A DNA stretch of 64,000 nt from an uncultured Acidobacteriota bacterium (GCA_963699175.1 OY969418.1:5959101-6023100); one strand, 5' to 3'. Shown: positions 9,783 to 43,460, counted from the first letter of the stretch. Notes: generated by a model not told the origin, from the letters alone. Numbers and translations are program-made.

Positions 9783-9788
9783 GCGTGC

Positions 9789-13166: not shown

Positions 13167-15074
13167 ATGAGGAAATGGGTTTGGTTAATTATATTGGCGC
13201 TAGGCGTCTGGTCATTGTATTGCGGGTCTGCCACGCAAGATTCGTTGATTACACACGCTACTGCGTTGCAAGAGACGGTGCCGCAAGCTGAGCCTGTCAA
13301 CTGGGTTGGCTTGATTAATTGTGCGGTCAGGCAGAACACCTTACAAAAGATTCGCGGGCGTGATGATTCACCTGACGCGGGCGCTTGTTCGACTCAGCGC
13401 ATCAATGAGGGCGCATATCTGGAATTTGCAGCGTCAGAAACCGGCAAGGAGCGCTACGTGGGGGTGAGCGCGGAGTGCGCTGGCGCCAGTGACAAAGCGA
13501 TAGACTTTGCCCTACACCTCACTACCATCATTTATCGCGGCGCACCTGTCGTGGAAGTGCGTGAGCGTGGCGTCTATCGAGCTGAAACTTCCTACTCGGC
13601 GCAAACCACCTTTCGCATCGCTGTCGAAGGCGGCGCAGTTAAGTACTACAAAGACGATGAGTGTTTTTATGTGAGCAAAGCCGAGCCGCATTATTCATTA
13701 GCGGTGGCCGTTTCCTTATTTAATGTTGGAGCAGCAGTGAGTAATGCTGTTGTGGTCAAAGGCAAGGTAGAAAGAGCCAAACCGCTTGCAGCTAAGTCAC
13801 AGACCCAAGCAAGTAACCCAACTGCTGCTAGTGATTCATCATCTACCCTGAAAGCGCCAGCCAATAGTCCGTGGGCCGGTATTCCAGACGATAACAAAAT
13901 CTACCTGCCTCCCGATTATGCCGCTTTCACACCGCCCAATGTGGGCAGCAAGTACTTTGACACAGTCTTTGGCACGACCTTAGTGCGCCTAAGCAACGGC
14001 CAGGCGCAATTCAACGATGCCGTTCATCATGAGTACGCAACCATGTCGCCGTTCAACAAGGATAGTAGTTTGATATTGCTGCAATCCGATCAGCATGGTT
14101 TCTTTATCGTTGATCGCAACGGAAGGCAGGTCGTGCCACCAGCCGCCTTGCAACTCGGTGGTTTGAGCGAGCCTAGATGGAGCGGCAAAGATACTCACGC
14201 GTTCTACTATCACGACGGCAACCAACTCAAGCAGTTCAATGTGCTAACCCAGCGAAAGAGCAACGTACATACGTTTCCGCAATACCAGAAAATTACTTTC
14301 GGCGGCGGTGAGGGCGATATTTCTGAAGACGGCGATCATTTGTTGATTGTGGGTGATGACCGTTATGTCGGTATGTACACGCTCAGCAACGACACGCTTG
14401 GCCGGGTGATTGATCTCAGAGCAATTGGCGAGTGGCACGAGGTCTACGTTACTGCGAACAACAATGTCTTGGTGCGTTGGTCGGCTGAAGGCACAGGCAA
14501 AAATAAGGGAACAGGTCTGTTCGACAAAGAGATGAATTTTCTTCGCCAAGTCGTGCCTTTTGTCGGCCACAACGATCAAGGGCGCGACTTGAATGGGGAT
14601 GAGGTATTACTGATTGCAGGTTATCGCGATACTTCGCCAGCGCCCGGCTGCGAGAACAATGGCGTGGAGAAAGTGCGGCTTGCCGATAGCAGGAAAACTT
14701 GTTTAGTACCGCTCAACTGGGAAACCGAGATACACGTCAGCAGTAACAGCGACGGGAGAAATCCCTGGGTGTTGGTTTCGGTTACCGACACAGGCAAAGG
14801 CACGGCTGAAGCCAATAACAGCTTACCGCCGGAATGGCGTAGCCGCTGGGGAGTCAGGTTCAACGAGTTGATTCTGGCCAAAATTGACGGCTCGGAGCGC
14901 CGCCGCATTGCGCATCATCGCAGCCGCACGCTGAGCGACTATTGGTTCCAACCACGCGCGGCCATCAGTAGAGATGGCAGATATGCCGTTTTCGATAGTA
15001 ATTTCGGCATCAATCCCTTGAAAGACTATACGGATGTCTTTCTAGCACACTTGGCCAAAGCTGGTGGAAACTAG
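13167..15074 (+). CDS. secreted two-domain protein (beta-sandwich + TolB/oligogalacturonate-lyase-like beta-propeller)
   Basis: Signal peptide, beta-rich N-domain, Ser/Thr/Ala linker, then propeller-like blades (SEPRWS, ISEDGD, QPRAAISRDGRYAVFDSNF). Confidence 0.65.
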   Translation: MRKWVWLIILALGVWSLYCGSATQDSLITHATALQETVPQAEPVNWVGLINCAVRQNTLQKIRGRDDSPDAGACSTQRINEGAYLEFAASETGKERYVGVSAECAGASDKAIDFALHLTTIIYRGAPVVEVRERGVYRAETSYSAQTTFRIAVEGGAVKYYKDDECFYVSKAEPHYSLAVAVSLFNVGAAVSNAVVVKGKVERAKPLAAKSQTQASNPTAASDSSSTLKAPANSPWAGIPDDNKIYLPPDYAAFTPPNVGSKYFDTVFGTTLVRLSNGQAQFNDAVHHEYATMSPFNKDSSLILLQSDQHGFFIVDRNGRQVVPPAALQLGGLSEPRWSGKDTHAFYYHDGNQLKQFNVLTQRKSNVHTFPQYQKITFGGGEGDISEDGDHLLIVGDDRYVGMYTLSNDTLGRVIDLRAIGEWHEVYVTANNNVLVRWSAEGTGKNKGTGLFDKEMNFLRQVVPFVGHNDQGRDLNGDEVLLIAGYRDTSPAPGCENNGVEKVRLADSRKTCLVPLNWETEIHVSSNSDGRNPWVLVSVTDTGKGTAEANNSLPPEWRSRWGVRFNELILAKIDGSERRRIAHHRSRTLSDYWFQPRAAISRDGRYAVFDSNFGINPLKDYTDVFLAHLAKAGGN

Positions 15075-16333
15075 CTTGGCCTGCTGGAAAACTTACGTTT
15101 GAGCCAACGTAACATTGGTAACACGGCCACCACCAAATCCCCTCCGCCTTTGCCCGTGGCCAGCAGCCACGTGCTCATGGTGCGGCGCGCGGGCCAGAGT
15201 TGATTGGTAAAGCTATTTGCCGCCGCGCATGAATCCATCCACTCAATAGTCTCGTCGCCGTGCAATCGGCGAATGGTCTCCAACTCCAACTGCCAACCGG
15301 GCGAGCCTTGTTCGTACTCTTCATCAAACGCAATCTTGAAAGCAAACGATCCCGCGCCCGCACGCAGACAACATTTAAGCGCAATGGGTTCTCCGTTGAG
15401 CCGCAACGCTAGCCACAACAAACGTTGCCGCCGCGCGCCTTCACACATGGCTTCGAGGAAAAACTGCCGCGACGCCGGGGTTGAAGCCAACGCCGAACCG
15501 GCGCGCCCCTTCCAGCCCTTCGCTTCCAATTGTAGAAATTGCTCGAGCCAAGTCTCAATCTCCGCGCCTGGTTGCCATTCGACATATTCGACCGGCCCAA
15601 GGCGTTCCAGCCGTCTTTCCTGTTTGCGTAGGTATTTGCGCCGCTCTTTGGAGAGCGCCATCGCCAAAAAGCTCTCGCCGTCCGTGCTGCGTTCGAACAG
15701 CGCGCGCGTATAACTCTCTTCCAACATAGCCGGACAGGCCGAATTGTTGAGATAGTCGGTCAGCAATTGAGTCAGCAAACCATCGCCGCCGATCTGGTTT
15801 AACACTAGCAGCGCGCCGCTGTCAGGGTCGTGCTCGAGCCAATCCAAAAAGCTTGTCAGGCAATCACGCGCGTATTCAGCGTGGATAAGCGGAGTGCAGA
15901 GAGTCGCGTATTTGTGGCGCCAGAGGCGCGTGCAAGCGAGTGGAAAACCTTTGTATCCACGCTGATGTTCAAGCGGAAAGAAACCACACAACACAGGCTG
16001 GCCTGACGGCCCAACGAGTTCTTCGGTGTAAAGCAGCACGAAGCGCAAACCCTGATCCGCGCCAAACGCTTTGAGGGCAGGCAACAACATCCACGATTCA
16101 TAAAAGGCGTTCGGTTCGATAGCGGCGGCGGCCAACTCATCCCAAGCGGCGACGTGTTGTACTAACTCTTCTGCGGTATGTAGCACGACGACGCGCATCG
16201 CTTGGCCTGTCGGCTCAAATTGGCATTTACGCGGGCGCTGCCATTGTGCCGCGCGCGTCGGTAGGTCGTTCGCTGTGACGGGTGACGAGGCGGTCTCTTC
16301 ACGCGCCAATAATTCGAGACTGCTTACAGCCAT
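15071..16333 (-). CDS. CelD/BcsL-like tandem GNAT (Acetyltransf_6) protein
   Basis: WDEL...EPNAFY, FLQLEAKGWKG, FKIAFDE..SPG, WMDSCA motifs. Close paralog of 18512-19786. Confidence 0.85.
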   Translation of the reverse strand: MAVSSLELLAREETASSPVTANDLPTRAAQWQRPRKCQFEPTGQAMRVVVLHTAEELVQHVAAWDELAAAAIEPNAFYESWMLLPALKAFGADQGLRFVLLYTEELVGPSGQPVLCGFFPLEHQRGYKGFPLACTRLWRHKYATLCTPLIHAEYARDCLTSFLDWLEHDPDSGALLVLNQIGGDGLLTQLLTDYLNNSACPAMLEESYTRALFERSTDGESFLAMALSKERRKYLRKQERRLERLGPVEYVEWQPGAEIETWLEQFLQLEAKGWKGRAGSALASTPASRQFFLEAMCEGARRQRLLWLALRLNGEPIALKCCLRAGAGSFAFKIAFDEEYEQGSPGWQLELETIRRLHGDETIEWMDSCAAANSFTNQLWPARRTMSTWLLATGKGGGDLVVAVLPMLRWLKRKFSSRPS

Positions 16334-17553
16334 AATCCTGCTGTTGAGTGAGCGGCAGGTTGGAAACGTGCACGCAACGCGCGCCGTACGCGGCCCAACG
16401 CCCGCCGTGTTTTCAAGCCGGTTTGATAGAGTGCCGCACGCCAGCCGGGACGGAAAAGCTCCAACTCATACGCCGCGCGCGTCTCTTTTGTCCATGAATC
16501 TTTGTACGCTGCGCCGCCGCCCATCAAATCGAATTCGCGGATCTCAGGGTCTGCGACACAGGCCTGGAGGCACTGCGCTACCATTACACTACCCAGGCTG
16601 TATTTCGCGTAGTTCATATCGAAGCCGCCCTGAAAGTAATGCGCGACGCCATTGTCAATGAAGGTCAACAAAGTAGCCGTGCATTGGCCATTCAGTTTGA
16701 GCGTCCAAAAGCCCAGGCGGCTTTCTGACAAGGCCTGATTGGCAGCAGTGCGCAGGAAAGCTTCGAACTTGGGGTAAGCGAATGAACCACTCTCGCCTTT
16801 GGCCGTCCAGCGCATTTGATGGAGCCTGACAAAGTCATCCAGCGCCGGTGCCAACTCATCTGGCGTTTCTACTCGGTGAAACTCAACGGCGTAGTCTTTG
16901 TGCAACTTGTTCACCCGGCGTTCGAGCGTGTGGCTGACTTGGCGCGACCAACCACGCTTGATTGTCTCCCAGTCACCATCGGTCGTGACGTGATAGAGCT
17001 GATCGCAAATGTTGATGCGCGCCGTTTCACCCAATGCCTGTTGAAAGTGCGGTAGAACCTTCGACCGATCAGGAATGTTCCATAACCACAACCGATCCCA
17101 ATCGCGGCGCTGCAAAAGAAAAGCCGCACAGGCTTCGGCGCAGGCGCGTTCGAAACCTCGTCGCGCAAGTATGTCCAGATGCTCGCTGGTTTTAATGCCT
17201 GCGCCTGTGCCCAGGAAATTCAGGTCGCGAATGTGCGGCACGCCTGCCCAGCGGCGTTGTTGCCAGTAGAGCGGGGCCAATCCCAGTAAATTTCCTTCGG
17301 CATCACGACAGGCCAGCAGATATAGCTGGCTTTCAGGCGGCGCATAGGTGCGCCACCACAGACGATTCCACGACCAGCAGAGAAAGAAGACACGCTGCTC
17401 GCTCTCTGCCAGCAATTGATCCCAGATTGTTTGGAGACTGTCGAACTCGGCTTCCGTAGTCAGCAACTCGACCTGCAGCGCAGTCGCAGAGATAAACACT
17501 TTGCGCGCGGGCGCAGCCGTGTCGAGCAATGCCTGCGAACCTTGAACGATCAT
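16324..17553 (-). CDS. CelD/BcsL-like tandem GNAT (Acetyltransf_6) protein
   Basis: GLAPL, SEHLDIL, LHQMRW, YFQGGFD..YAKYSLG, FDLMGGGAAYKDSW motifs. Confidence 0.85.
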   Translation of the reverse strand: MIVQGSQALLDTAAPARKVFISATALQVELLTTEAEFDSLQTIWDQLLAESEQRVFFLCWSWNRLWWRTYAPPESQLYLLACRDAEGNLLGLAPLYWQQRRWAGVPHIRDLNFLGTGAGIKTSEHLDILARRGFERACAEACAAFLLQRRDWDRLWLWNIPDRSKVLPHFQQALGETARINICDQLYHVTTDGDWETIKRGWSRQVSHTLERRVNKLHKDYAVEFHRVETPDELAPALDDFVRLHQMRWTAKGESGSFAYPKFEAFLRTAANQALSESRLGFWTLKLNGQCTATLLTFIDNGVAHYFQGGFDMNYAKYSLGSVMVAQCLQACVADPEIREFDLMGGGAAYKDSWTKETRAAYELELFRPGWRAALYQTGLKTRRALGRVRRALRARFQPAAHSTAGLWL

Positions 17554-17556
17554 CGC

Positions 17557-18492
17557 TTACCTGTAATCAGCGCGTGGTGCCTGAGTTTGTTTCTTGAGCA
17601 GTTTGCGCGCGCCCATCCAGGCGCGGAAGCTGTGATAGCCGATGCTGTCATATAACTTCGATTGGCCCAGCGGCATGGGCTTGAGTCCACGACGGCGCAG
17701 GCTTTCGTTGAGCGCGGAAACCACAATTTGGCGTTGATATTTTTTGGTCAGAAACGTGATGCTGAACGAGATGGAAACCTCCGGCCCGTTCTGCACCCAA
17801 TGCGGAGCTGCAGCGGGGAAATGCAGCCCCTTGCCGGGTGTCAGTTTGAAAACTGCCGCGCGCTGCTGAAATTCGTCTTGATAGACAAAATGTGGATTCT
17901 CGCCCGCCAGAAAGCTCTCCATTGCTGTGGCTGGAATGACGCTGTGATCGTCCGGTTCCCACAGGCTGACCTCTTTTTCGCCGCGAATCTGCAAGAGGAA
18001 GTTGTATTCCGGATCGAGATGAAACGGCGTGGTCGAGCCGGGCGAGGAGATAAAAATAAAACCTTCGCGCCTGAACATGCCCGGATCGAGCGGCTCTGCC
18101 AGCGCCTGGACTTGATCGAGACATTCATTGAGCAACGTCGCGTAGTCCGGGTCTTGTTCGACGTGCTTCAGCACCATCCACGAGCGGCATTCTTCGATCC
18201 GGTGAATCGTTTCTTCCACCGACAAACCGGTGCGTGGCCCTTGGTGTAAAACAGTCGTCAAGGGAACCTCGCCGGAGTGATAACTGACATCTTGCTCCGG
18301 CAAGCGTTTGGAAAGCTCGATCAAGCGCGGCAGTTCGAACAATGGATGCCCAGCCAACTGATGGTTGATCGGAAAGCCACGCCGGTTAAAGTCGCGGCGA
18401 AAGCATTCTTCGTCAAGTTCAAGCAATCCAGCTTGTCTGTTGCGACCAGCTTGGTTGGCGGTGGTCATTTCACTTGCATTCACGTTATACAT
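17557..18492 (-). CDS. JmjC/cupin-like Fe(II)/2-oxoglutarate oxygenase
   Basis: TPFHLDPEYNFLLQIRGEK (HxD plus Lys), distal His in APHWVQN, then SISFS. GGAG RBS. Confidence 0.85.
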   Translation of the reverse strand: MYNVNASEMTTANQAGRNRQAGLLELDEECFRRDFNRRGFPINHQLAGHPLFELPRLIELSKRLPEQDVSYHSGEVPLTTVLHQGPRTGLSVEETIHRIEECRSWMVLKHVEQDPDYATLLNECLDQVQALAEPLDPGMFRREGFIFISSPGSTTPFHLDPEYNFLLQIRGEKEVSLWEPDDHSVIPATAMESFLAGENPHFVYQDEFQQRAAVFKLTPGKGLHFPAAAPHWVQNGPEVSISFSITFLTKKYQRQIVVSALNESLRRRGLKPMPLGQSKLYDSIGYHSFRAWMGARKLLKKQTQAPRADYR

Positions 18493-18511
18493 CTTTGCAC
18501 TCCTTGCACCG

Positions 18512-19786
18512 TTACTCGCTTGACGATTGTCTCGGCGACCACGATTTCCAACGCCGTCGCGCCCAATTCAACAGCGGCATGGCGGCTAGGATCAGCTCAC
18601 CCCGATTGCCAATGCCAACCAACATTGATTGAATCGTCCGCCGTTCCGGCCAGAGCTGATTAATCATGAACCGATCGGGCGACGCGCATGAATCCATCCA
18701 ATCCAACTCCGGGCGCGCATGCAAACGGCGGATGTTTTCCAGCTCCAAGAGTACACCGGGCGAATACTTGCCAAACGTCTCATCGAACGCGATCTTGAAT
18801 GCGAATGAGCCGGGCTGGGTCAGAAAATTGCACTTGTGCGCGATAGGGTGCCCGTTGAAATCGAGCGCCAGCATCATCAACTGGTGGCGCTCGAAAGCCG
18901 CACGCGCCACCGTCTCAAAATACGCACGGTCGTTCTCGTTACTAGCCAGCGCCCGCCCCGCATAGCCTTTCCAGCTTTCAGCCTCGAATTGCAGAAACTC
19001 TTGAATCCACGCCTCGACATCGCCACCCGGCGCAAGCGCGCGATATTCGACGCGCCCCGTTTCCATCAAACGCCGCTCCTGTCGCCGGTATTCTTTGAGC
19101 CGGAAGCGCGAGAGCGCTGATCGCAGGTAAGTTTCTGAATCAGCCGACGGCTTGAACAACGCACGCGTAAACCGTTCGGTAACAAGCGTCGCGGCGCCGG
19201 TTGCGTGCAAGTGGTCAACGAGCGCGTGATAGATCTTGCCTTCGCCTGCGATCCAATCGAGTTTCAGTACAGGACAGCCGTGCTCGCCACGTGCCAGCCA
19301 GTCAAAGAAGGCCGCCAGCGTTTCGCGCGCGTAATCTGCTCGTAGTAACGGTGTGGTTAGATAACAAAACTTGTGACGCCAGAGGCTGATGACGCGCAAG
19401 GGCAGGCGGTTGTAGAGTCGTTTCCGCTCCAGCGGGAAAAGCCCACACAGCTTTTTTCCTTGAGTTGACTCGGCAAAGATCAACACAACCTGCAAGTCGC
19501 TGTCCGTTCCCAACAATCGCAATGCCGGCAACAATTGCCACGCCTCATAAAACACGTTCGGCTCAACTGCATTGGCAACCAGATCATCCCATTCAGGCAA
19601 ATAATCGCTCAACGCCTCGATGTTTCGAATCGCCACGACCGTCAGCTTGTTGTGTTCCGATGTGCTAAGTAGGGAAGACGCAACAACAACGGGTTTCTTC
19701 GTCTCTTGTCCTGTTCGGTTGGCGAGCGAAGAAAGAACAGCTTGTCTGGTGTGTAACCCCGTTGTTGTGTCGTCTACTTTCGGCAT
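18512..19786 (-). CDS. CelD/BcsL-like tandem GNAT (Acetyltransf_6) protein
   Basis: WDDL...EPNVFY, EAESWKG, FKIAFDE..SPG, WMDSCA motifs. Confidence 0.85.
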   Translation of the reverse strand: MPKVDDTTTGLHTRQAVLSSLANRTGQETKKPVVVASSLLSTSEHNKLTVVAIRNIEALSDYLPEWDDLVANAVEPNVFYEAWQLLPALRLLGTDSDLQVVLIFAESTQGKKLCGLFPLERKRLYNRLPLRVISLWRHKFCYLTTPLLRADYARETLAAFFDWLARGEHGCPVLKLDWIAGEGKIYHALVDHLHATGAATLVTERFTRALFKPSADSETYLRSALSRFRLKEYRRQERRLMETGRVEYRALAPGGDVEAWIQEFLQFEAESWKGYAGRALASNENDRAYFETVARAAFERHQLMMLALDFNGHPIAHKCNFLTQPGSFAFKIAFDETFGKYSPGVLLELENIRRLHARPELDWMDSCASPDRFMINQLWPERRTIQSMLVGIGNRGELILAAMPLLNWARRRWKSWSPRQSSSE

Positions 19787-19795
19787 AAATCATTT

Positions 19796-21001
19796 TCAAA
19801 CCGATGCGAGCGCATGTGCTGCAGCTAGCACAACTGGTTGCGCATTCAACTCACGAATCTGTCTCAGCTTGTAATTGCGATATTGGCCTGGATTGCCGCT
19901 GTGCCCATCAATTGCGGCCTGCGCAATGTTGAACGCCTCGCGCGCCGAAGCGAAATGGACTTTGAATTGTTTGCTGCGCTCGGCTAATTCCAACACTTCC
20001 GTCCAGAAGCGCCGCGCCGTCGCGCCTGTCGTGGCCTCTTCATCGCCGGGAAAGAAGCCGTGACAATAAAGTTTGATGAAGACCCATTCGGGGCGACTTT
20101 CGACAGCGATGTTGGCGTTTCGCCACAAATCGAAGCGTCGGCGATTGAACGTGCAATTGGCCGTCAACACACCTTCTTCAATACGCGGCACAGGCAAGCC
20201 TTTCTTGCGCCGTTTCCAATCAAAGACCAGTGGCCCGGTAATAATCAACGGCAGCGCAGGCTGCTGCCCCACTTTCAAACGAGGCCCCGAACGATGTGAC
20301 AGTGGCTGATCGAGCGGATGGCCGCATTCATACAACGAATTGATCTGCGGCACTTGCGAAGGCCAGGGAAACGCGGGCAGCGTAAAATCGGCCACACAAC
20401 CTGTCTCCACTAAAATCTGCATCTCGTCATCCACACCGCAGGCAAAGCCGCCACGCGAATTGGCTAGCGCAAAGTTGCCGTGCACGAAGCTGTACTTTGG
20501 TTGTGGATCATCGGCCAAACGCGACAAACAACCGTGCTCTTCCGCCAGCCGGTCGCGAAACTCGCTGATGCCTGCGCGGAAATTGGCCGAGTTGTCGGGC
20601 GCTTGCACGCCGTGGTGCCAGTGAATCTCGACTTCGCCGCAGCCATCGGCTTGCAACTCCGCCAGCCGGTCTAGCAACACGCGATGATATTGCTCGCCCG
20701 GATAAAAGTTCGTGTGTTGAAATGCCACGCCGTCGTGATCGCGCACTACACTGCCGGTCAGCCGTGCCGTGCGGCACCAGCTTTCCACTTTGGCAATCTG
20801 ATTAGGCAATTCGTCCAAGCCGCCACGCGCGCACCAGCCGGGTTCATAGTGATTGGCAATGACGAAAATCAAGTGGCGCGCGGCTACGCCATCCGTCAAA
20901 CGCCGCAATCGCTCGCCCGTGCGCCAGAACGGATAGCGCACCAGCCAGGGCAACGACCAATTCAGTTTATTGAACCAGGTATCTTTCAATTGCTTATTCA
21001 T
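19796..21001 (-). CDS. conserved hypothetical protein, possible NodB-like metallo-barrel
   Basis: His/acid-rich motifs NHYEP, HTNFYP, EIHWHH, FVHGN, KLYCHG. Sits in operon with the GNAT genes. Confidence 0.6.
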   Translation of the reverse strand: MNKQLKDTWFNKLNWSLPWLVRYPFWRTGERLRRLTDGVAARHLIFVIANHYEPGWCARGGLDELPNQIAKVESWCRTARLTGSVVRDHDGVAFQHTNFYPGEQYHRVLLDRLAELQADGCGEVEIHWHHGVQAPDNSANFRAGISEFRDRLAEEHGCLSRLADDPQPKYSFVHGNFALANSRGGFACGVDDEMQILVETGCVADFTLPAFPWPSQVPQINSLYECGHPLDQPLSHRSGPRLKVGQQPALPLIITGPLVFDWKRRKKGLPVPRIEEGVLTANCTFNRRRFDLWRNANIAVESRPEWVFIKLYCHGFFPGDEEATTGATARRFWTEVLELAERSKQFKVHFASAREAFNIAQAAIDGHSGNPGQYRNYKLRQIRELNAQPVVLAAAHALASV

Positions 21002-21018
21002 ACAATTGCTTATTCATA
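20987..21018. repeat. perfect 16-bp tandem duplication spanning a start codon
   Basis: CAATTGCTTATTCATA at 20987-21002 and again at 21003-21018. Confidence 0.9.
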
Positions 21019-21043
21019 GCGCGCGCCGCTCAATGCAATTAGC

Positions 21044-21808
21044 TTACTTGACCAACTCAATCACCTTGACGGTCGCGTAATATTCAAGGTGCGGGAATCG
21101 CCGCAACATGCGCTGGTCAAAACGCACCAACGGCTTTACATAGTTGCGCGCGACTGGCAACAGACCCGCCACACCGATGTACGGCAGATAGAATGACCGC
21201 GCGCGATAAGAAGCGAACCCGCTGGCGAATTCCTCTAACTCCGCATGCGGTAAGGGATCAAACCGCGCACGAAATCAAGCGTTGCTGAATTGCGCACCGG
21301 CTCTTTGAAAATTGCCCGCCCGCCTTTGCGCAAGATACGCTTAGCCTCGCGCGCAGCCAGCGGCAATTCCAAGTGATGCAGGATCGCAATGCCGAAAATA
21401 ACATCTACCGATTCATCTTCCAGCGGGATGTCGTACACCGACGCTGTGATGAATCGCACGCCGCTGTCAATCCCATTGACGCTCAAGCGCCGCCGCCCGA
21501 TTTCGATCAACTCAGGCGAGATGTCCACGGCCTGTACCTGCGCACCACGCCTGGCCAGCAGTAAAGTGTTGTCGCCCGTGCCGCAACCGAAATCCAGCAC
21601 CTGCTTGCCGCGCACGTCGCCCAGCAAGTGATAGGCGTATTCCAGCGGGTAAGATGTTTCTGCCGGTGGATTCAAATAGCGTGCGACGTTGCTCTCACAC
21701 TCGCGCAACGCTGCATCTTCTGCGCGCCGCTTCGAACGCACTGCGTTCGCGTTCAGCCTGTTCCCCCGTGCGCAGGTCTACTGCGCGTGTGGTCAAGATT
21801 TGATTCAT
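21044..21808 (-). pseudogene. class I SAM-dependent methyltransferase with two frameshifts
   Basis: AAGGAGG RBS and ATG 21808 (MNQILTTRAV...EAAR, stop at 21695). The core (VLDFGCGTG, FGIAILHHL) is in a second frame, 21741-21235. The tail ...HAELEEFASGF...VKVIELVK* (stop 21044) is back in the first frame. Confidence 0.75.
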
Positions 21809-21914: not shown

Positions 21915-23228
21915 CTACCAGCAAATTCCTTGATATGATTTCGGACGTTCGTTGCTTTCAATCAGCCGCACCAGATCAATCACGGTGCGACCATTGTTCA
22001 GATAATCGTGGATAGCGCGGTACTCTTCGGACTTCTTGCCGATGACAATTACCTCGGAGCCTTCGATCACCTGGTGAATGTCTTCGCGCATCAGTGACGA
22101 GATATGCGGAATCTCGCGCTCGATGTAGTCGCGGTTCGCGCCGAAGATGCGCGCCAGCTCGACCTCTTTGTCGTAGATCGACAGCTTGTAGCCTTTGCCC
22201 AATAACAGTTCGATCAGCGTGACGGTCGGGCTTTCGCGCAGATCGTCCGTGCCGGCTTTGAAGCTCAAACCGAGAATGCCAATCTGTTTTTTGCCAGTCT
22301 GTGCGACCAATTCGGCGGCACGCTCAATTTGCAAGCGGTTACTGACCAGCAACGAATTGAGCAACGGCGTTTCCAGATCGAGCGTTCTTGCCTTGTAGGT
22401 CAATGCACGCACGTCCTTCGGCAAGCACGAACCGCCAAAGGCGAAGCCGGGCTTCAAGTAGTACGGCGATAAGTTCAGCTTCGTGTCCTGACAGAAAACG
22501 TCCATCACCTTGTGACTGTCCACGCCGAGTGTCTTGCAGATGTTGCCAATCTCGTTGGCAAAGGTGACTTTCAATGCGTGGAAGCTGTTGCAGGCATACT
22601 TGACCATCTCGGCCTCTTTGACCTTGATGCTTAAGACTGGCGCGTTGATGTGCGAGTAAAGCTTGCGCACCAGAAAAGCCGCCTCCTCGTCATCCGCGCC
22701 GACCAGCGTGAAGGGCGGATGATAGAAGTCATAGATCGAAGTGCCTTCGCGCAGAAATTCAGGATTGATCGCCACGCCGAAGTCACGCCCGGCCTTCTTG
22801 CCCGAATAGACTTCCAGCGTCGGAATCACCACGTCGTGCACCGTACCCGGCAGCATCGTGCTGCGCACGACCACTACGTGATAGCGGTGCTTGGTCTCCA
22901 AGGACGAGCCGATCTGCTTGCAAACGTGTTTGACGTGATTGAGGTCGAGACTGCCGTTGGTATTGCCAGGCGTACCAACGCAGATCAGCGAGACATCCGA
23001 ATCCATCACGGCTTCGACCGCTTCGGTGGTGGCACGCAAACGGCCTTCTTTTACGCCCGACGCAATTAACTCTTCCACGCCCGGCTCAACGACGGGTGAA
23101 CGACCTTCGTTGATGATCTGCACTTTAAGTTCGTTGACATCGCAGCCAATCACTTCGTGACCGCTCTCGGCGAAACACGCGGCAGAGACTGCGCCAATAT
23201 AACCTAAACCAAAAACGCTAATTCTCAT
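21915..23228 (-). CDS. algD: GDP-mannose 6-dehydrogenase-like nucleotide-sugar dehydrogenase
   Basis: GLGYIG, CVGTP, NPEFLRE, KLNLSPYYLKPGFAFGGSCLPKD, FKAGTDDLRESP and terminal GICW, closely following AlgD. Confidence 0.85.
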   Translation of the reverse strand: MRISVFGLGYIGAVSAACFAESGHEVIGCDVNELKVQIINEGRSPVVEPGVEELIASGVKEGRLRATTEAVEAVMDSDVSLICVGTPGNTNGSLDLNHVKHVCKQIGSSLETKHRYHVVVVRSTMLPGTVHDVVIPTLEVYSGKKAGRDFGVAINPEFLREGTSIYDFYHPPFTLVGADDEEAAFLVRKLYSHINAPVLSIKVKEAEMVKYACNSFHALKVTFANEIGNICKTLGVDSHKVMDVFCQDTKLNLSPYYLKPGFAFGGSCLPKDVRALTYKARTLDLETPLLNSLLVSNRLQIERAAELVAQTGKKQIGILGLSFKAGTDDLRESPTVTLIELLLGKGYKLSIYDKEVELARIFGANRDYIEREIPHISSLMREDIHQVIEGSEVIVIGKKSEEYRAIHDYLNNGRTVIDLVRLIESNERPKSYQGICW

Positions 23229-23242
23229 TTGAGTCCTGCTCC

Positions 23243-24508
23243 TTAACCTGCCGCTGCCAGCTTCGCGCCCGCGACTGCTACTTGCTTGTTCGATAACCGC
23301 AATACCTTTTCACACAGCGCTGCAAATTCATCGGCCACATTGCCCCAGCCGAAGCGCGCACGCACCGTTGCCGCCGCTTGTTGACCAATGCGCCGCGCCA
23401 ACGCTGCATCGCGCAACACGCGCACAACTGCATCAGCAAAAGCTTGCGGTTCGTCTGCCAAAAGCAATTCGGCGCCGTCGCGCACGGGCAAGCCCTCTGC
23501 GCCAATCGTAGTCGAGACAATCGGCTGCTCCATCGCCATCGCTTCGTAGACCTTCAAACGCGTGCCTCCGCCGATGCGCAGTGGAATGACGTAGGCAGCG
23601 GCGCGCTCCATAAACGGACGCACATCGTCAACGCGACCCGTCACAGTAATGGCCGGATCGCGCTGGCTTAACTCAAGCAAACTCGGAAACGGATTGCGCC
23701 CGACGACGGTCAATTTCACGTCGGGGATTTGCTGTTTGATGAGCGGCAAGATTGCTTCGGTGAAATAGCGGATCGCATCTTCGTTCGGCAGCCAATCCAT
23801 CGAGCCGGTGAAAACCAGCGAGTTCGGCTCGGTTTCAAGCTTCCCGCTCGGTTTGAAAAACTCCGTGTCCACGCCTGTCGGCACATCACTCACGTTGGTC
23901 ACGCCATACGCGCGACGCATGGTGTCAACATCGTCCGCTGAAACGGCCACGACGTAGTCGTAGCGCTGGCACGCGGCCTTTTCATACTCAACCGCTTTTT
24001 CCCATTGGCCTTTCAAGTAAGCTTTCTTAAGCGGCTGCGTCTGGACTTCGTAGTGGCGCTGCCAGATCATCGCTTCGACGTTGTGCTGGAAGAGCAGCGT
24101 CGCGCAATTGACGCGCTCCGGTACATTGAAGCTCGGATTCAAGAAATCGCAGACCAGCACATCTACGTCGCCTTTAGCCAAACGTCGCTCAATCGCTGTA
24201 CGCATCGCCGCCGATTTGTACTTCTTTACAAAGTAGGGCAACGGCGAAACCAGGTTCTGCGCCAACTCGGCATAAAACCGGGCGGAGAACTTCGCGCTTG
24301 TCTGGTGCGATACAGTGATAAGTTCGTGGCAATACTCTGTCGCTCGCTCCGCCGCGTCAGGCGCAGCCGTGCCATCATCCAGCGTCAAGTAGGTCACGCG
24401 ATGCTGGCGTTTCAGTTCCTTCAGCATGTGGTAGGTGCGAATCTTGCCACCCTTATCCACCGGATGGAGCAGTTCAGTTTTAAGCCAGAGAATGTGCATC
24501 AACCTCAA
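23243..24508 (-). CDS. glycosyltransferase family 4
   Basis: HNVE, FTGSMDWLPNEDA, PLRIGGGTRLKVYEAMA motifs. Confidence 0.92.
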   Translation of the reverse strand: MRLMHILWLKTELLHPVDKGGKIRTYHMLKELKRQHRVTYLTLDDGTAAPDAAERATEYCHELITVSHQTSAKFSARFYAELAQNLVSPLPYFVKKYKSAAMRTAIERRLAKGDVDVLVCDFLNPSFNVPERVNCATLLFQHNVEAMIWQRHYEVQTQPLKKAYLKGQWEKAVEYEKAACQRYDYVVAVSADDVDTMRRAYGVTNVSDVPTGVDTEFFKPSGKLETEPNSLVFTGSMDWLPNEDAIRYFTEAILPLIKQQIPDVKLTVVGRNPFPSLLELSQRDPAITVTGRVDDVRPFMERAAAYVIPLRIGGGTRLKVYEAMAMEQPIVSTTIGAEGLPVRDGAELLLADEPQAFADAVVRVLRDAALARRIGQQAAATVRARFGWGNVADEFAALCEKVLRLSNKQVAVAGAKLAAAG

Positions 24509-24511
24509 ATC

Positions 24512-26467
24512 TCAAATTGCCAGCGCCAAAGCTTCCTCTGTCTCTACCGCTTCAGCAATATCTTCCGCCGCTTCGCCGTCAAAGAAGCGCCGCAGCCAGA
24601 TTTCAAAATTGATCAGCAGCCACAACCGTTCCGCGTGGTTCTCGCCTGCTTGATGCCGCGCCACCAGGCTGCGCACAAAATCGGCGTCGAACAACCCGCG
24701 CATCAATGCGCGTTCGCTCAACACATACTCGTCAACGATATATTTGAAAGGCCCGCGCAACCACGCGCCCACCGGCACGGGGAAGCCCATCTTTTTGCGC
24801 GTCAAAATCTCGTCAGGCAGCACACCCTTCATCGCCTGGCGCAGAATATATTTTGTCGTTGTGCCGCGCAGCTTCATTTCAACCGGTAAGTGTGTGGCAA
24901 ACTCAATCAGCTTGTGATCGAGGAAAGGCACACGGCTTTCAATCGAAGCGGCCATACTCATCTGATCCTGCTTCATCAACAGCTCGTGTAGATAGGTTTT
25001 CAAATCCGCCGCCAACAACTGGTCAAGCAGGTTGTCGGCATCCGCCGCGTTTACGTATTCAAGCGCCGTGTGATACGGATCATCGTCCCACATATCGGCG
25101 TAAGTCTGCGCAGTGAACAACTCCTGCTGCATGGCGGGCGAGAAGACTGCGAAGTTGTCGAAGTAGATGTTCCGCAGCGCGGCAGGCAGACACAGGAACG
25201 TGCGCTGCAATTTCTGCCGCACGCGGTTTGCGCCGCCGAGTTTTTCAATCCGATGCCTGATCGCGTCTCGCACGCGCGCAGGCGCAAGGCGGTTGTAATA
25301 CGCGCCAAGTTGCAAATTGAAAATCGTCGCGCGGTACTTGTTGTAGCCGGCGAGTAATTCGTCCGAGCCTTCGCCTGTCAGTACGACTTTGACGTGCTTG
25401 CGCGCCAGCTTCGAGACGAAGTACAAGGGCACGCTCGATGGGTGCGCCAGCGGCTCGTCTTCCTGATAAACGAGCGCAGGCAGCGCAGCAAAAAACTCTG
25501 CCGGGCTGACTATGATCTCGTGATGCTCGGTGCGATAGGCCTTGGCCACAGTGCGCGCGTATTCCAACTCGTTTGCTTCACGTTCGGCAAAGGCGACTGA
25601 AAAGGTCTTGATCGGTTCTTTGACAAGCTGGCTCATCACTGCTGCAATCGCACTCGAATCAATGCCGCCGGAGAGAAACATGCCCAGTGGTACATCGCTC
25701 ATCAGGTGTGACTCGACGCAATCACGGAAGAGGCTGCGGAATTGTTCGACGTAGGCGGCGTCGCTGAGCCGTTGCGGCGGCTTGGTAAAACTCAAATCCC
25801 AGTATTGCTTGATCTCGACTTGGCCGTCACTCCACACCAGCGTGTGGCCGGGCGGCAATCGCTTGACGCCTGCGTACAAGGTTTCTGTGCCCGAGGTGTA
25901 GCGGTTGGCAAACTGATCGGCCAGCGCGTTGTAATTTAGTTCTGGTTTGAGCGCGCGCCCAGCGAGCAAGGCTTTGATCTCAGATGCGAAGTGCAGTGTG
26001 CCATCTTCTTCCAGCACATAATAAAGCGGCTTGATACCGACGCGGTCTCGCGCCAGCACGAGCTTGCGCTGTGGCGCGTCCCATAAGGCGTAAGCGAACA
26101 TGCCGCGCAAGCGTTGCACGCTGGCGGTGCCGAACTCTTCGTAAAGGTGAATGATCGTTTCCGTATCGCTGGCGGTGCGGTAGCAGTGGCCTTTGCTCTC
26201 GAGCAGCGGGCGTAATTCGCGGTGGTTGTAGATCTCCCCGTTGAAGGCAAGCCAGACAGTACCGTCTTCGTTCGACATCGGCTGCTGTCCACCACCCAGA
26301 TCAACGATGGACAGACGCCGGTGGCCCAACCCAACTGTGCTGTTGACCCACGTGCTGGCATCGTCGGGGCCACGATGTTCAAGTGCGTCACGCATCAGCG
26401 TCACGCGCGCATCATCAACACGCCGATTAAGTCGTCTTGGAATGGCCGTACCACAAATACCGCACAT
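24512..26467 (-). CDS. asnB: asparagine synthase-family glutamine amidotransferase (EPS-associated) 1
   Basis: [42 protein letters not shown] motifs. Confidence 0.93.
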   Translation of the reverse strand: MCGICGTAIPRRLNRRVDDARVTLMRDALEHRGPDDASTWVNSTVGLGHRRLSIVDLGGGQQPMSNEDGTVWLAFNGEIYNHRELRPLLESKGHCYRTASDTETIIHLYEEFGTASVQRLRGMFAYALWDAPQRKLVLARDRVGIKPLYYVLEEDGTLHFASEIKALLAGRALKPELNYNALADQFANRYTSGTETLYAGVKRLPPGHTLVWSDGQVEIKQYWDLSFTKPPQRLSDAAYVEQFRSLFRDCVESHLMSDVPLGMFLSGGIDSSAIAAVMSQLVKEPIKTFSVAFAEREANELEYARTVAKAYRTEHHEIIVSPAEFFAALPALVYQEDEPLAHPSSVPLYFVSKLARKHVKVVLTGEGSDELLAGYNKYRATIFNLQLGAYYNRLAPARVRDAIRHRIEKLGGANRVRQKLQRTFLCLPAALRNIYFDNFAVFSPAMQQELFTAQTYADMWDDDPYHTALEYVNAADADNLLDQLLAADLKTYLHELLMKQDQMSMAASIESRVPFLDHKLIEFATHLPVEMKLRGTTTKYILRQAMKGVLPDEILTRKKMGFPVPVGAWLRGPFKYIVDEYVLSERALMRGLFDADFVRSLVARHQAGENHAERLWLLINFEIWLRRFFDGEAAEDIAEAVETEEALALAI

Positions 26468-26484
26468 ACTTACTTCTCTACTGC

Positions 26485-28671
26485 TTAAACTGTTGCCAGA
26501 TCGCGTCGTTTGTTTTGTTCCGTCGGGCGGCTATTTTCCGTCAGCACCCATTGCGTGACGAAACGTTCGACCTCTTCTTTTTGCTGTTGATTGAAAGGCA
26601 CGATCAGCGTGCGCAACTCGCAACTCCCCTGTGCCTCAAGCGTATTGATTGCCAACGGCGCTAGTTCGCGTTGCCCATAGCAACGCGAAACCCAACCCTC
26701 TTCAAGCCGTATTCCAACTGTCGGTGACAGCTCCGTTGATGAGTGAGCGCTTGTAGCAATCGTTACCAAAATTAGCCCCTTCCCGTCCGGGGCGGTAACG
26801 TGGATGTGGCCATTCCCTACACTAGCTTGAAGACCGGCAGCGAAGTGCAAACGCAACTCGTAACGATGCGTTGACTTGGCTGTAAAGCGGTCACGCAATA
26901 CCAAATGTGTGATTGCGCCACACTGCCATAAAAATTGGCGTTGTTGCCGCACCGGGTCGGTCAGCCGCGCGTAACCGTTCTGTTGCCCGGTGAATTGCCA
27001 GCCGGTCGCAGTCTCGCTAAATTCCAACGGCAACACCTGCGCTACGTGTGACCAGGTGAAGGCGCTCAGCTTGACCGATTGGGACAGGCCATCCACCGCC
27101 ACCGTGTTGTGACCGAGTGATGACGTGAATGCCACACGCTCCTCCGCGCCACGCGTGTAGGTGTAGGTGCCTGGGTCAACCAGCCAAGTCACGCCCTGTG
27201 CGGCGAACTCGAACGAAAGGGCGTCGCTGTGCGCGTGGCCGCCGTTCATTACGCCGTGCGGGCCGCAATCAATGAACAGGTAACTCGATGTGCGTTCCCA
27301 ACCATCACGCAGCACATAAAAACCACTTTCAGCAAATGCTTTTGTGTGCATTGCTGGTGGTTGCGCGGCCAGATCATCGAAGGCTTTCAATCCGTGTGCG
27401 CCGAGCAGCCACAACGTCTCGATAGATGCTTCACCCGCGACGTACTTCCATTCGCCGCGTTGAAAAAGCGCCGCGCCTGTCGCCAGTGTGTCGCGGAAGT
27501 CGTCCGCGTTGCGCGTGCTCAACATCACCAACCGCCCGCCATCGTCGTCGCCGTAAAACGTCGCGCTGCCGTCCGGGCGCGTGACCCAGCACAGATGTTC
27601 GTACAGCGCAGTCAGCTTTTCTTCCACGACAGGCGGCAACTTGATGTTATGAGCACGACACAGCAGCGACAGGTGCGTATAAAAGTCCGTCGTATAGCGG
27701 TGGTAATACGAAGCCTGTTCGAAGTAGACGCCATCACGCCGCACCTGCCGCGGTAATTGTTCGAGCAAGATTTGCAAACCGCACTGCTGCCAATGTTCCG
27801 CTTGCTGCAACTCCGGTAGCGCCACGCCCAAATAAAACAGCCCCAACGCCTCGCCCGTCAGATGCGTGTTTGGGCTGAAGTAATGCGACAGATACGTTTC
27901 TATGTATCGTCCTTGCGCGATCAAGCTTTTCAATAGCCGCGTCACAAACTCCGGCGTCAACGCTTTCGCTTCGGCAAACAGATGCAGCGCCCAGAGCCAC
28001 GCGATCACGCGAAAGGACAACTCCAAACTGCTCGCCCAATTGATGCCGCGCTTGGGCGGATTGGCATCGAGCCAGGCGGTCGCCAACTCGACAAACTTCG
28101 CGGCGTAACGCTCATCGCTCGTCAGCCAATAGGCCTGCCCCAAAGTAACAAAGAACTGGTGGCGGTTGAGTTCCCAAGTAAACTTCTTGTCGCCCGCGAC
28201 CTCAGGGTTCAGAAAGTCGAGTTTGCTCCAATGCAAGAGCGGCGTGCGTTTGCCCGTAGTCGGCTCAAGTTGCCAGTCTACCGGCTCGCCGAAGCTCAAG
28301 CCTTCAGGCTCCCCTTTGTATTCAAAGATGTCGAAGCGATTGGTCAACACGCGGTCGGCGCGCGCCAGGATGGCGGCACGCTCAACCGGGAAGCGCGTTT
28401 CCATCAAGGCTATGATTCCCGCCCGTTGCTTGAGCGCCGGAAAGAAACGCTGTTCTTGAGGCTTGCGCCATCGCTCAATCAGCGCGGTTACAGATTCGCG
28501 CGCCGTCGGCTTCCGCGCCACCGCCGTGAAAGCGTGTTGCAACTGCCGGTCGGTCAGCTCTTGCGCGTCGCTGCCAAAGTAGCGTTCGCTCAGCTTGGCC
28601 AATTCTTGAGCGCCGCGCACGCGCAATTCGCGCCAACTCCTGCCGCGCAGTTTGCTGCCGGTCAATCTCAT
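26485..28671 (-). CDS. heparinase II/III-family polysaccharide lyase
   Basis: WELNRHQ, SPNTHL, FEQASYYH, GDDDGG, HAHSDALSF, LVDPGTYTY, GHNT motifs. Confidence 0.9.
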   Translation of the reverse strand: MRLTGSKLRGRSWRELRVRGAQELAKLSERYFGSDAQELTDRQLQHAFTAVARKPTARESVTALIERWRKPQEQRFFPALKQRAGIIALMETRFPVERAAILARADRVLTNRFDIFEYKGEPEGLSFGEPVDWQLEPTTGKRTPLLHWSKLDFLNPEVAGDKKFTWELNRHQFFVTLGQAYWLTSDERYAAKFVELATAWLDANPPKRGINWASSLELSFRVIAWLWALHLFAEAKALTPEFVTRLLKSLIAQGRYIETYLSHYFSPNTHLTGEALGLFYLGVALPELQQAEHWQQCGLQILLEQLPRQVRRDGVYFEQASYYHRYTTDFYTHLSLLCRAHNIKLPPVVEEKLTALYEHLCWVTRPDGSATFYGDDDGGRLVMLSTRNADDFRDTLATGAALFQRGEWKYVAGEASIETLWLLGAHGLKAFDDLAAQPPAMHTKAFAESGFYVLRDGWERTSSYLFIDCGPHGVMNGGHAHSDALSFEFAAQGVTWLVDPGTYTYTRGAEERVAFTSSLGHNTVAVDGLSQSVKLSAFTWSHVAQVLPLEFSETATGWQFTGQQNGYARLTDPVRQQRQFLWQCGAITHLVLRDRFTAKSTHRYELRLHFAAGLQASVGNGHIHVTAPDGKGLILVTIATSAHSSTELSPTVGIRLEEGWVSRCYGQRELAPLAINTLEAQGSCELRTLIVPFNQQQKEEVERFVTQWVLTENSRPTEQNKRRDLATV

Positions 28672-29042
28672 CTCTTCGTCTTGACGTAGCTCCCCAACCG
28701 GCTCAGCGCATCGGACAACGTGGCGCGCTGCTCAGTAGTTTCGAGCTTGCGCAACGCCGTCAGAAAACTTTCGGTTGGCTTTTCATCACGCTCTTCGTTG
28801 ACCGGTCGCGCATTCAAGCGCAACAGTCGCTCAGCGCGCGTTGAAGGCGTGCCGGGATCGAAGGGCAGAATCAACGCCCGTTCTGTTCCATCTTCTGCTC
28901 TTGTTTTTGCTCTCTCCTCTGATTGCTGGCGATGAAGCGAAAGCCTGCGTTCGAACTGCTGACGCAAGCGAGATACGAAAATGCTCAAAAGAGCGCGCAA
29001 CCCGTCAAGCGACGGATTGCGTAAAGGCTTTTCGCTCTGCAT
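28668..29042 (-). CDS. hypothetical protein
   Basis: Fills the gap between oxidoreductase and lyase. ATGA overlap with the lyase start. Charged and helical. Start uncertain. Confidence 0.5.
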   Translation of the reverse strand: MQSEKPLRNPSLDGLRALLSIFVSRLRQQFERRLSLHRQQSEERAKTRAEDGTERALILPFDPGTPSTRAERLLRLNARPVNEERDEKPTESFLTALRKLETTEQRATLSDALSRLGSYVKTKR

Positions 29043-31251: not shown

Positions 31252-31252
31252 A

Positions 31253-32404
31253 TCAGTGGTCAGTGGTTGTCGGTTGAGCGATGACTTGATGATTGGCTTG
31301 CGTAGCTGATGCATCTGCCAGTTCACGGTAAAGCTTCAACCATTGGTCGCGCACCTTCTCCCAGGTGAATTGCTGCGCGCGGGCGTGGGCGTTGTGCGCC
31401 AGCCGCCGCGCCAACTCCGGGTCTTCCAGCAAGCGCATCGCATTCTGCGCCAGCCCCACGTAATCGCCGCAGTTGACGATCAGCGCGCTCTCTTCGTGTT
31501 TGACTAAGTAGGGAATCCCGCCCGCATTGGTCGTCACCAACAAGATACCGCAGGCGCAGCTTTCCGTCGCAGCCGCAGGCATATTGTCAATGTCGTTGCC
31601 GATTAAATAAATGTCGTGTTCGTCGTATAGCTCCGGCATCTTTTCAAACGGCACAAAGCCCAGGAAGCGCGTGTTGCGCAATTTCAAATCGCGCGCCAAT
31701 TGCTCCAACTCGCCGCGTTGCCAACCGTCGGCGGCGATGGTCAGGCTCGCTTCAGGGTATTGCTGCTGAACCAGATGAAACGCGCGAATGACATTGCCCA
31801 CGTTGTAGAGCGGTTCGAGCAGGCGGCCGCACAGGAATTTCGGTTTGAGCGGCGCGCGGTCGCGGAAGCGGAAGCGCTCAAGCTCGATGATGTTGAAGAT
31901 GGATTCGGCCTTCAATCCGAAGCGCGCGAACACGTCTACCAGGTAGTTGGACGGCGCAACGATACGGTCGGCCAAACGCATAAATGGCTTGGTCGTGAGT
32001 GGCCAGTTTTGCAGATGGTCTTCGGCCTCGCCGCTGCGGTAATTCAAAATGACCTTCTTGCCGTAGAGCTTTGCAATTAGGATGGCCGGGAGCGCCGAGA
32101 TCATGTACGAATAATACGAAGCGGAAAAGACTTGCACGATGTCGTAGCGCCAGACCCGCGCGAGCAGCAGGAGGGAATATTGCAGCGTCATCAAGAGCGT
32201 GCGGACGTATTTGATTCTGCGCACCCAGCGCAGTGGTTTTGGCGGACGTGGATTGTGCGGGATGAAGCCGACCGTGAGCGCTGGTTCTGAGCCGAGCGCC
32301 GTCAGCAAACGCACAGCCTGCCGAGACTGGCCGCCGTAAATGTCTAGTGAAGGCGCCGCGATGCAAACGCGGAGTTTTTCAGGTTGTGGGGACGAACGTT
32401 TCAT
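31253..32404 (-). CDS. glycosyltransferase family 4
   Basis: NYRSGEA, RLLEPLYN, DNMP...E, TTNAGGIP motifs. ATG 32404 with GAGGA RBS. Confidence 0.9.
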   Translation of the reverse strand: MKRSSPQPEKLRVCIAAPSLDIYGGQSRQAVRLLTALGSEPALTVGFIPHNPRPPKPLRWVRRIKYVRTLLMTLQYSLLLLARVWRYDIVQVFSASYYSYMISALPAILIAKLYGKKVILNYRSGEAEDHLQNWPLTTKPFMRLADRIVAPSNYLVDVFARFGLKAESIFNIIELERFRFRDRAPLKPKFLCGRLLEPLYNVGNVIRAFHLVQQQYPEASLTIAADGWQRGELEQLARDLKLRNTRFLGFVPFEKMPELYDEHDIYLIGNDIDNMPAAATESCACGILLVTTNAGGIPYLVKHEESALIVNCGDYVGLAQNAMRLLEDPELARRLAHNAHARAQQFTWEKVRDQWLKLYRELADASATQANHQVIAQPTTTDH

Positions 32405-32475
32405 TAATTCCTCGTGGGACAAACTCGAATGATTGAAGTGAACGCGCCAGCGCAAACATTACGGCACCGCCGTAC

Positions 32476-35081: not shown

Positions 35082-35086
35082 AACCT

Positions 35087-37036: not shown

Positions 37037-37097
37037 AAGTCCTCATTCGTGGGTCCGTTTTTTTTGGATAGTGCTAAAAATGTAAGGCCCAGTTCAC

Positions 37098-37196
37098 CGC
37101 AGAGACGCAGAGAACACAGAGGCCTCGCAGCCTTCCTTTTTGCGCCCACCCGTTTTTGATTTATGAGTTGAGTAGGAGAGCGGGAGAGCAAGAAAC
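37098..37196. repeat. short-period degenerate repeats in intergenic spacer
   Basis: cgcagaga cgcagagaa cacagagg, then ggagagcg ggagagca. Confidence 0.5.
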
Positions 37197-37225
37197 ACAA
37201 AGTCTCCATCTTTCCCACGCCCAAT

Positions 37226-38422: not shown

Positions 38423-38440
38423 GTTTCATACTCCAGCTCC

Positions 38441-40006: not shown

Positions 40007-40016
40007 TGTCTTTAGT

Positions 40017-41669: not shown

Positions 41670-41670
41670 T

Positions 41671-43413: not shown

Positions 43414-43460
43414 TGTCGCTTAGCCTCTGTGGATTTTTGTTTTTATCTATGCACCGGAAC

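Follow-up and report, generated by a model that had tools for sequence, protein, structure and literature searches.

The window analysed here, a 64,000-nucleotide stretch of the genome of an uncultured Acidobacteriota bacterium (GCA_963699175.1 OY969418.1:5959101-6023100), carries at the end of an exopolysaccharide (EPS) operon a cassette of six co-oriented minus-strand genes, running from 21741 to 15071, that includes three tandem GCN5-related N-acetyltransferases (GNATs) and a JmjC-type oxygenase. Transcription proceeds from a class I S-adenosylmethionine-dependent methyltransferase (21235..21741, 168 aa; Methyltransf_11, E 1e-23) through unk401, a 401-aa protein whose fold matches deacetylase/GH57-like (beta/alpha) barrels (19796..21001), GNAT3 (18512..19786, 424 aa), a JmjC/Cupin_8 Fe(II)/2-oxoglutarate (2OG) oxygenase (17557..18492, 311 aa) and GNAT2 (16324..17553, 409 aa) to GNAT1 (15071..16333, 420 aa). 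Successive genes in this order are separated by 233, 9, 19 and 3 bp, and the last two overlap by 10 bp, as measured from the predicted starts of the longest open reading frames (ORFs); for GNAT1, an internal Met 44 codons further in may be the start. The cassette is the 3' end of a ~34-kb Wzx/Wzy EPS operon that reaches 49526 on the same strand, and a convergent gene abuts it on the other side. A scan of 14500-23500 for promoters and terminators found sites no more numerous than in shuffles, so it is from gene orientation and spacing that we read the operon structure. A first-pass annotation of this DNA had described six co-oriented genes, their mostly tight spacing and their place at the close of an EPS operon much as we find them, and had proposed that the GNAT-GNAT-JmjC-GNAT cassette installs and then oxidises an acyl or aminoacyl substituent on the repeat unit. 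Of that pathway, the coupling of GNAT to JmjC, the folds and the intact catalytic residues stand; the four-gene unit does not, and a two-gene one takes its place.

Evidence for the smaller unit comes from a scan of species-representative genomes, which gave 565 confirmed loci; the best 80 of the 565 were analysed, drawn from Acidobacteriota, Planctomycetota, Myxococcota, Rokubacteria, Proteobacteria and other groups. Adjacency was counted if a partner-clade GNAT gene lay on the same strand and ended no more than 600 bp upstream of the JmjC gene. A GNAT3/GNAT1-type Acetyltransf_6 gene lies directly upstream of JmjC in 71 of the 73 loci that hold at least 1300 bp of upstream sequence, the exceptions being L054 and L079 (where the GNAT is 3.5 kb away), and three of the seven loci with less than 1300 bp upstream still show the end of such a gene. 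JmjC homologs are therefore linked to GNAT loci, as the annotation had supposed. A tree was built of 122 GNATs with at least 280 aligned residues each, from the related loci, the window and a second locus of the source genome. A single clade of 89 members takes in all 70 of the tree's JmjC-adjacent GNATs as well as the window's GNAT3 and GNAT1. GNAT1 groups with the JmjC-adjacent GNATs of four loci (L039, L047, L050 and L058; support 1.0). GNAT2 belongs to the other clade, of 33, and clusters with GNATs that elsewhere accompany a deacetylase and a family 4 glycosyltransferase (GT4), and with two GNATs of the genome's second EPS locus. The partners are also found as one protein: L052 has a single 704-aa ORF with GNAT at the N-terminus and JmjC at the C-terminus, and 29 longer homologs of 574-759 aa are known, 28 of which match PF13480; the order Acetyltransf_6 then Cupin_8 holds in nine of the ten long homologs scanned. 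The coupling goes far past what chance would give. Because the adjacency is nearly universal across phyla and the fusion recurs in gene order, we regard this as strong evidence that GNAT3 and JmjC would act in consecutive steps on one substrate.

A distinctly improbable alternative is that the two enzymes modify the same glycan at independent sites, with JmjC hydroxylating a sugar carbon or demethylating an N-/O-methyl group rather than altering the group that GNAT installs. The methyltransferase gene in the cassette would fit this, as would the existence of sugar-hydroxylating Fe/2OG enzymes of glycolipids such as KdoO, but a methyltransferase neighbours the module in just 2 of the 80 loci, with weak scores and no sign of conservation, and both the recurrent fusion and the 71/73 adjacency argue for consecutive steps on a single substrate. 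Since linkage to EPS genes is incomplete across the loci (see below), the functional unit that acts in those steps is the GNAT-JmjC pair and not the four-gene cassette: a self-contained, portable two-enzyme module, often within glycan loci though not always, that was here recruited into an EPS operon. No description of a GNAT-JmjC or Fem-like/JmjC module in polysaccharide synthesis was found in the full-text literature, a search whose coverage excludes subscription journals.

Some further features of the pair and of its loci may be recorded here. The partner-clade GNAT is tandemly duplicated upstream of JmjC in at least 15 loci (L012-L018, L021, L023, L025, L027-L029, L038 and L071), with three copies in L038, and the second copies are scattered over several positions in the tree, which would fit several duplications better than one old A/B split. 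Downstream of the pair in L029 (11938-16459, minus strand), and also in L014 and L023, opposite-strand genes encode a thioester-reductase-like protein (NAD_binding_4), a 286-aa protein resembling a class II aminoacyl-tRNA-synthetase core, an AurF-like N-oxygenase and a ketoacyl synthase III (KAS III)-like protein; together they look like a small cluster of natural-product type. The second glycan locus of the source genome (L009, G000:C1:8786000-8805999, at 9056-19980, minus strand) likewise has three Acetyltransf_6 genes at its end; between them lie genes for a family 2 glycosyltransferase (GT2), a 277-aa protein without known family, a WecG-type transferase and a CE4 deacetylase, and a DMFA2_C-like amidase gene adjoins. 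No JmjC gene was seen in that locus.

What kind of transferase is the GNAT partner? All three GNATs of the cassette pass the gathering score of Pfam Acetyltransf_6 (PF13480; CelD/BcsL, BioF2-like GNAT; cut-off 22 bits), with 78.4 bits for GNAT1, 97.0 for GNAT2 and 56.1 for GNAT3. Over 373 residues GNAT1 and GNAT3 share 45.6% identity, against about 20% between GNAT2 and each of them, matching the two close paralogs and one divergent member that had been noted before. PF13480 is the sole Pfam family for each, with no match to Pfam FemAB at E<=0.01, and searches of PDB sequences with GNAT3 alone and with its 72-sequence profile returned nothing usable. The predicted structure of GNAT3 is a confident tandem GNAT (predicted local distance difference test, pLDDT, 90; predicted TM-score, pTM, 0.85), and its top Foldseek matches are FemA, FemX, the aminoacyl-tRNA-dependent peptide synthases Sba18 and Sbb17 and the aminoacyl-phosphatidylglycerol synthase domain of MprF, with FemX and FemA outscoring MprF. 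Judged from this model, the GNATs have a FemABX-type tandem-GNAT fold to which FemX and FemA are closest, in line with the FemAB-type likeness that the annotation had named. Coenzyme A (CoA)-binding GNATs carry a Q/RxxGxG/A motif as their CoA loop; by eye, no loop of that type follows strand beta4 of the C-terminal GNAT, where an invariant S-P-G stands instead. The rank of the folds and the absent CoA loop favour a Fem-like donor, short of proof. FemX, FemA and FemB, like Sbb17 and Sba18, share the fold of the GNAT3 model without the window proteins belonging to their families by sequence; they serve peptidoglycan or antibiotic synthesis, whereas the window GNATs lie in an EPS operon of a Gram-negative-type genome. 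A PEP-CTERM-associated FemAB-like family (TIGR03019) gave no NCBIfam match at E<=0.001 for any of the three GNATs, its presence in the library being unconfirmed.

Among described systems, HfsK/HfsH of the Caulobacter crescentus holdfast comes closest. HfsK, a tandem-GNAT protein, has FemX as its nearest relative of solved structure and depends for membrane association on a short Arg-rich C-terminal extension of 25 residues; it is coupled genetically to EPS systems, and its proposed role is to acylate the amines that a polysaccharide deacetylase uncovers (PMC5362036). Compared by that description and not by sequence, the window GNATs share with HfsK the fold, basic tails and the context of EPS and deacetylase genes; basic tails end all three GNATs and the oxygenase as well. 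HfsK differs in having no oxygenase partner, and its donor and product are not established. PF13480 also matches the Caulobacter control genome, which is compatible with kinship to HfsK though not specific.

The second member of the pair passes the Cupin_8 gathering score (29.9 bits against a cut-off of 27.4) and matches JmjC_2 with 19.9 bits, under that model's cut-off of 22. Its best sequence match in the PDB is JMJD5 (E 3.7e-5), followed by FIH and TYW5 in a range to E 0.03; these three enzymes hydroxylate amino-acid side chains. In a HMMER alignment, H158-x-D160, N164, K173 and H231 fall on the matching metal- and 2OG-binding residues of JMJD5. In 71 sequences from the related loci H158, D160, K173 and H231 never vary, while conservation of N164 is at least 90%; in 24 database homologs all five are invariant. 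The HxD...H motif and the Lys are therefore intact, as had been claimed, and these Fe/2OG residues suggest a catalytically competent oxygenase. The likeness to JMJD5, FIH and TYW5 consists of the HxD...H triad plus an Asn and a Lys that fall, in the alignment, on JMJD5's 2OG-binding stretch. The substrates of these three enzymes are proteins or a tRNA base, whereas the family of the window's oxygenase is bacterial, about 300 aa long, has a conserved N-terminal region of its own and, unlike them, adjoins or is fused to a Fem-fold transferase. To our knowledge, JmjC-type oxygenases are known almost solely as modifiers of proteins and nucleic acids. Another point of comparison is LpxO and KdoO, Fe/2OG hydroxylases of glycolipids, of which KdoO is a Kdo hydroxylase acting on a sugar. 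They share the logic of 2OG-dependent hydroxylation, on the cytoplasmic side, of a substituent or sugar on an envelope glycoconjugate, but they do not belong to the Cupin_8/JmjC families and have no transferase partner or fusion. The gene is single copy in the source genome, and 2564 homologous proteins are found at E<=0.001.

How often, then, does the pair keep company with polysaccharide genes? In total, 47 of the 80 loci have a glycan gene near it: 34 hold EPS genes by similarity to the window's own EPS proteins, and a Pfam scan of neighbours (about 4.5-6 kb around the pair, with crude gene calls of at least 110-120 aa) adds a GT2, a GT4, a CE4 deacetylase, Acyl_transf_3 or a Wzx-type flippase in 13 of the other 46. 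The neighbourhood check that the annotation had suggested thus bears out the link of JmjC homologs to GNATs and leaves their link to EPS genes incomplete. In at least 14 loci an immediate neighbour of the pair is a deacetylase or an EPS-type GT2. A CE4 deacetylase stands directly upstream of the partner GNAT in six (L051, L057, L060, L077, L079 and L087; Pfam-confirmed in two), all six being homologs of the window's own CE4-type polysaccharide deacetylase at 41671..42744 on the minus strand, whose NCBIfam matches are PgaB-like N-deacetylases below their cut-offs. An EPS-type GT2 stands directly downstream of JmjC in eight loci. These downstream GT2s had been considered as ArnC/GtrB-like polyprenyl-phosphate transferases, an assignment we reject: their best NCBIfam matches are repeat-unit GT2s of the TuaG, EpsD and WcaA type.

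Directly upstream of the GNATs in four further loci (L039, L047, L050 and L058), as in the window, is unk401, which has 975 homologs and no Pfam (E<=0.1), NCBIfam or PDB sequence match; Polysacc_deac_1 is not among its families. Its model (pLDDT 93.3) is a (beta/alpha) barrel whose best folds are CE4 chitin, peptidoglycan and polysaccharide deacetylases (5z34, E 4e-5; 3qbu; 3rxz), followed by GH57 and GH38; the scores to CE4 folds are moderate, at E 4e-5 to 4e-4 and TMq 0.42-0.48. Six His are conserved (H51, H127, H129, H130, H174 and H314), together with Asp and Glu, so that the earlier description of a His-rich barrel protein is borne out, and these residues would fit a metal hydrolase. Among 16 multidomain relatives, eight are fused to Polysacc_deac_1 and the others to beta-helix, hexapeptide-transferase or GT2 domains, and an Atlas search gave a weak lead (0.81-0.82) to deacetylase clusters. 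With moderate confidence, we propose that unk401 is a deacylase-like or glycan-binding partner that prepares the acceptor. The CE4 deacetylase at 41671..42744 could also be the source of a free amine.

From the observed gene content, families, folds, catalytic residues and GNAT-JmjC coupling and fusion, we give roughly an even chance to the reading that the cassette works at the membrane's cytoplasmic face and tailors a lipid-linked EPS repeat unit there by deacetylation, acyl or aminoacyl transfer and hydroxylation, with GNAT3 and JmjC as its core. In this scheme, whose acceptor, donor, order of steps and action of the oxygenase on the GNAT product we infer, a deacetylase-type enzyme (unk401 or the CE4 protein of 41671-42744) would free the amine on an amino sugar, GNAT3 would transfer an aminoacyl or acyl group onto that amine, and the JMJD5/FIH-like Fe(II)/2OG enzyme would hydroxylate a carbon of the newly attached group. 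GNAT1 and GNAT2 might add further groups or serve other amines, and Wzx, Wzy and the export proteins would then flip, polymerise and export the unit.

As to the group itself, we lean only slightly towards an aminoacyl substituent, drawn from aminoacyl-tRNA, over an acyl one with acyl-CoA as donor. The leaning comes from the activating enzymes found as neighbours and from the amino-acid-side-chain activity of the oxygenase's solved relatives. More distant JmjC homologs from the same phylum (170-190 bits) lack the partner GNAT and stand in glycan loci beside other enzymes that activate acyl or aminoacyl groups. In L093 (7024-10014, minus strand) such a homolog is next to a stand-alone protein for amino-acid adenylation plus carrier function (TIGR01733, 448.6 bits against a cut-off of 317.4), with GT4s and a DegT aminotransferase alongside. 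In L096 (6561-13814, plus strand) it occurs with an ATP-grasp ligase, a class-III aminotransferase and an Acetyltransf_6 gene within a Wzx/Wzy locus. L084, where the pair is present, has pieces of an adenylation domain, a carrier protein and another GNAT upstream of it. A bolder version, which we hold only tentatively and think rather unlikely, is that the Fem-fold transferases use aminoacyl-tRNA to put an amino acid or short peptide branch on the repeat unit, the three paralogs perhaps working stepwise like FemX, FemA and FemB, and that JmjC then hydroxylates the side chain. If true, this would be a ribosome-independent, tRNA-dependent aminoacylation of a secreted polysaccharide and a case of JmjC-type amino-acid hydroxylation outside proteins, with tRNA-dependent chemistry carried by a portable two-gene module in many soil-bacterial phyla.

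Several observations weigh against the proposal that the cassette decorates an EPS repeat unit. The fold likeness of GNAT3 does not reveal the donor, and no tRNA gene was found in the window or in the 56 related loci scanned. The JmjC gene is patchy in its distribution: of 301 genomes sampled from the phylum, 13 yielded it, and neither of the two other genomes of the same family did. The window's unk401 has N50 at a position that is D in 38 of 42 sequences and, given this change, may be inactive as a deacylase. The only family member with a reported activity that came up, BspF, is described as acting on proteins. Finally, 33 of the 80 loci have no glycan gene near the pair, and 21 of these hold at least 14 kb, with the pair among unrelated housekeeping or transport genes; such long loci show the module to be independent of an EPS locus, and its usual acceptor may thus be something else.

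The last point leads to an alternative that we consider unlikely, in which the same transfer and hydroxylation occur on another envelope molecule (a lipid, a lipid A or core sugar, or a peptidoglycan precursor) and the position in an EPS operon is incidental or a secondary recruitment. Besides the 21 loci of at least 14 kb in which no glycan gene lies within about 4.5-6 kb of the pair, it draws on particular settings: in L032 the pair is flanked by genes for an outer-membrane barrel and a TPR protein, in L062 and L066 by ftsK and leuA/valS, and in L034 it lies beside lpxB-lpxA-fabZ-lpxD. The basic tails on both proteins of the pair suggest membrane association, and a lipid would be modified here as it is by aminoacyl-phosphatidylglycerol synthases of the MprF type. 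Against this alternative stands the lead of FemX and FemA over MprF in the fold search. The window pair is part of an EPS operon, with 3-19 bp between it and the adjacent genes, and the glycan genes of 47 of the 80 loci, with deacetylases or EPS-type GT2s as flanks in at least 14, likewise point back to a polysaccharide.

BspF itself suggests a second substrate class. The best NCBIfam model for GNAT3 and GNAT1 is BspF (NF047385), at 150.8 and 116.1 bits, with 42.9 bits for the third GNAT, all far under the curated cut-off of 775; residues 17-393 of GNAT3 match model positions 18-390, so that BspF and GNAT3, both of PF13480, are related over their full length, although the BspF model excludes GNAT3 by score. 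We know of no JmjC partner of BspF. The Brucella protein is described as a protein crotonyl/acyl transferase and a secreted effector acting on host proteins (PMC8488576). A protein-modifying pair, in which GNAT would acylate and JmjC hydroxylate a protein such as a secreted or envelope protein encoded nearby, would also accord with the protein hydroxylases that are the oxygenase's nearest solved relatives, and with a secreted protein, related to that encoded at 13167-15074, which neighbours the module in 16 of the 80 loci. All 16 are Acidobacteriota, though, while the pair spans many phyla; the fold of the GNAT is nearest to enzymes with sugar-peptide, lipid or small-molecule acceptors, and the recurrent flanking genes are a deacetylase, GT2 and GT4. 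We therefore think a protein substrate improbable and retain tailoring of the EPS repeat unit as the preferred reading.

A bacterial JmjC subfamily locked to a FemX-like transferase would extend JmjC enzymes to glycan or envelope tailoring, and the subfamily is large and widespread, numbering 2564 homologs and, among species-representative genomes, no fewer than 565 loci. The module could explain hydroxylated N-acyl or amino-acyl decorations of environmental polysaccharides. As far as we know, the Acetyltransf_6 family (CelD/BcsL/HfsK) has so far no defined reaction, and a reaction found here would give it one; the natural fusions are a ready-made bifunctional enzyme for such biochemistry.

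The remainder of the Wzx/Wzy EPS operon (21915..49526, minus strand) was read from Pfam and NCBIfam gene content. Upstream of the cassette it encodes a nucleotide-sugar (UDP-sugar) dehydrogenase, GT4s, two AsnB-type amidotransferases and a heparinase II/III-like protein, and also a GFO/ADH oxidoreductase, GT2, Wzy, Wzx, the CE4 deacetylase and an export protein, with a priming transferase, a tyrosine kinase and a chain-length determinant at the far end. With 453.7 bits, the priming transferase exceeds the TIGR03013 cut-off of 393.35, and the other XrtA/PEP-CTERM-type models matched by operon proteins score under their cut-offs. Among these are the two amidotransferases (within 24512-37036, minus strand), which come near the XrtA/PEP-CTERM amidotransferase model with 615 and 709 bits against 817. 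The same interval holds the heparinase II/III-like gene and one for a 773-aa ADH-GFO fusion oxidoreductase; none of the annotated ORFs was recognised as an exosortase gene. At the junction with the cassette, the methyltransferase ORF is short, and a 76-codon open frame at 21044-21274, in another frame, overlaps its end; the gene (21044-21741, minus strand) may be frameshifted or truncated, or the assembly may be in error.

On the far side of the cassette, the convergent gene at 13167-15074 (plus strand) overlaps GNAT1 by 4 bp; its 635-aa product begins with a segment like a signal peptide and matches no Pfam family. An Atlas search gave it a weak lead (0.82-0.83) to PD40/TolB propeller clusters, and in several Blastocatellia loci the related part sits in a protein of 1500-1670 aa with fn3 and purple-acid-phosphatase-N domains, divergent from the pair. 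Further out, 11152-11742 (plus strand) encodes a 196-aa GNAT resembling AAC(6')-I aminoglycoside acetyltransferases, at 171.9 bits against a cut-off of 300 and hence a non-member by the NCBI rule, and a glycerate 2-kinase-like gene comes after it.

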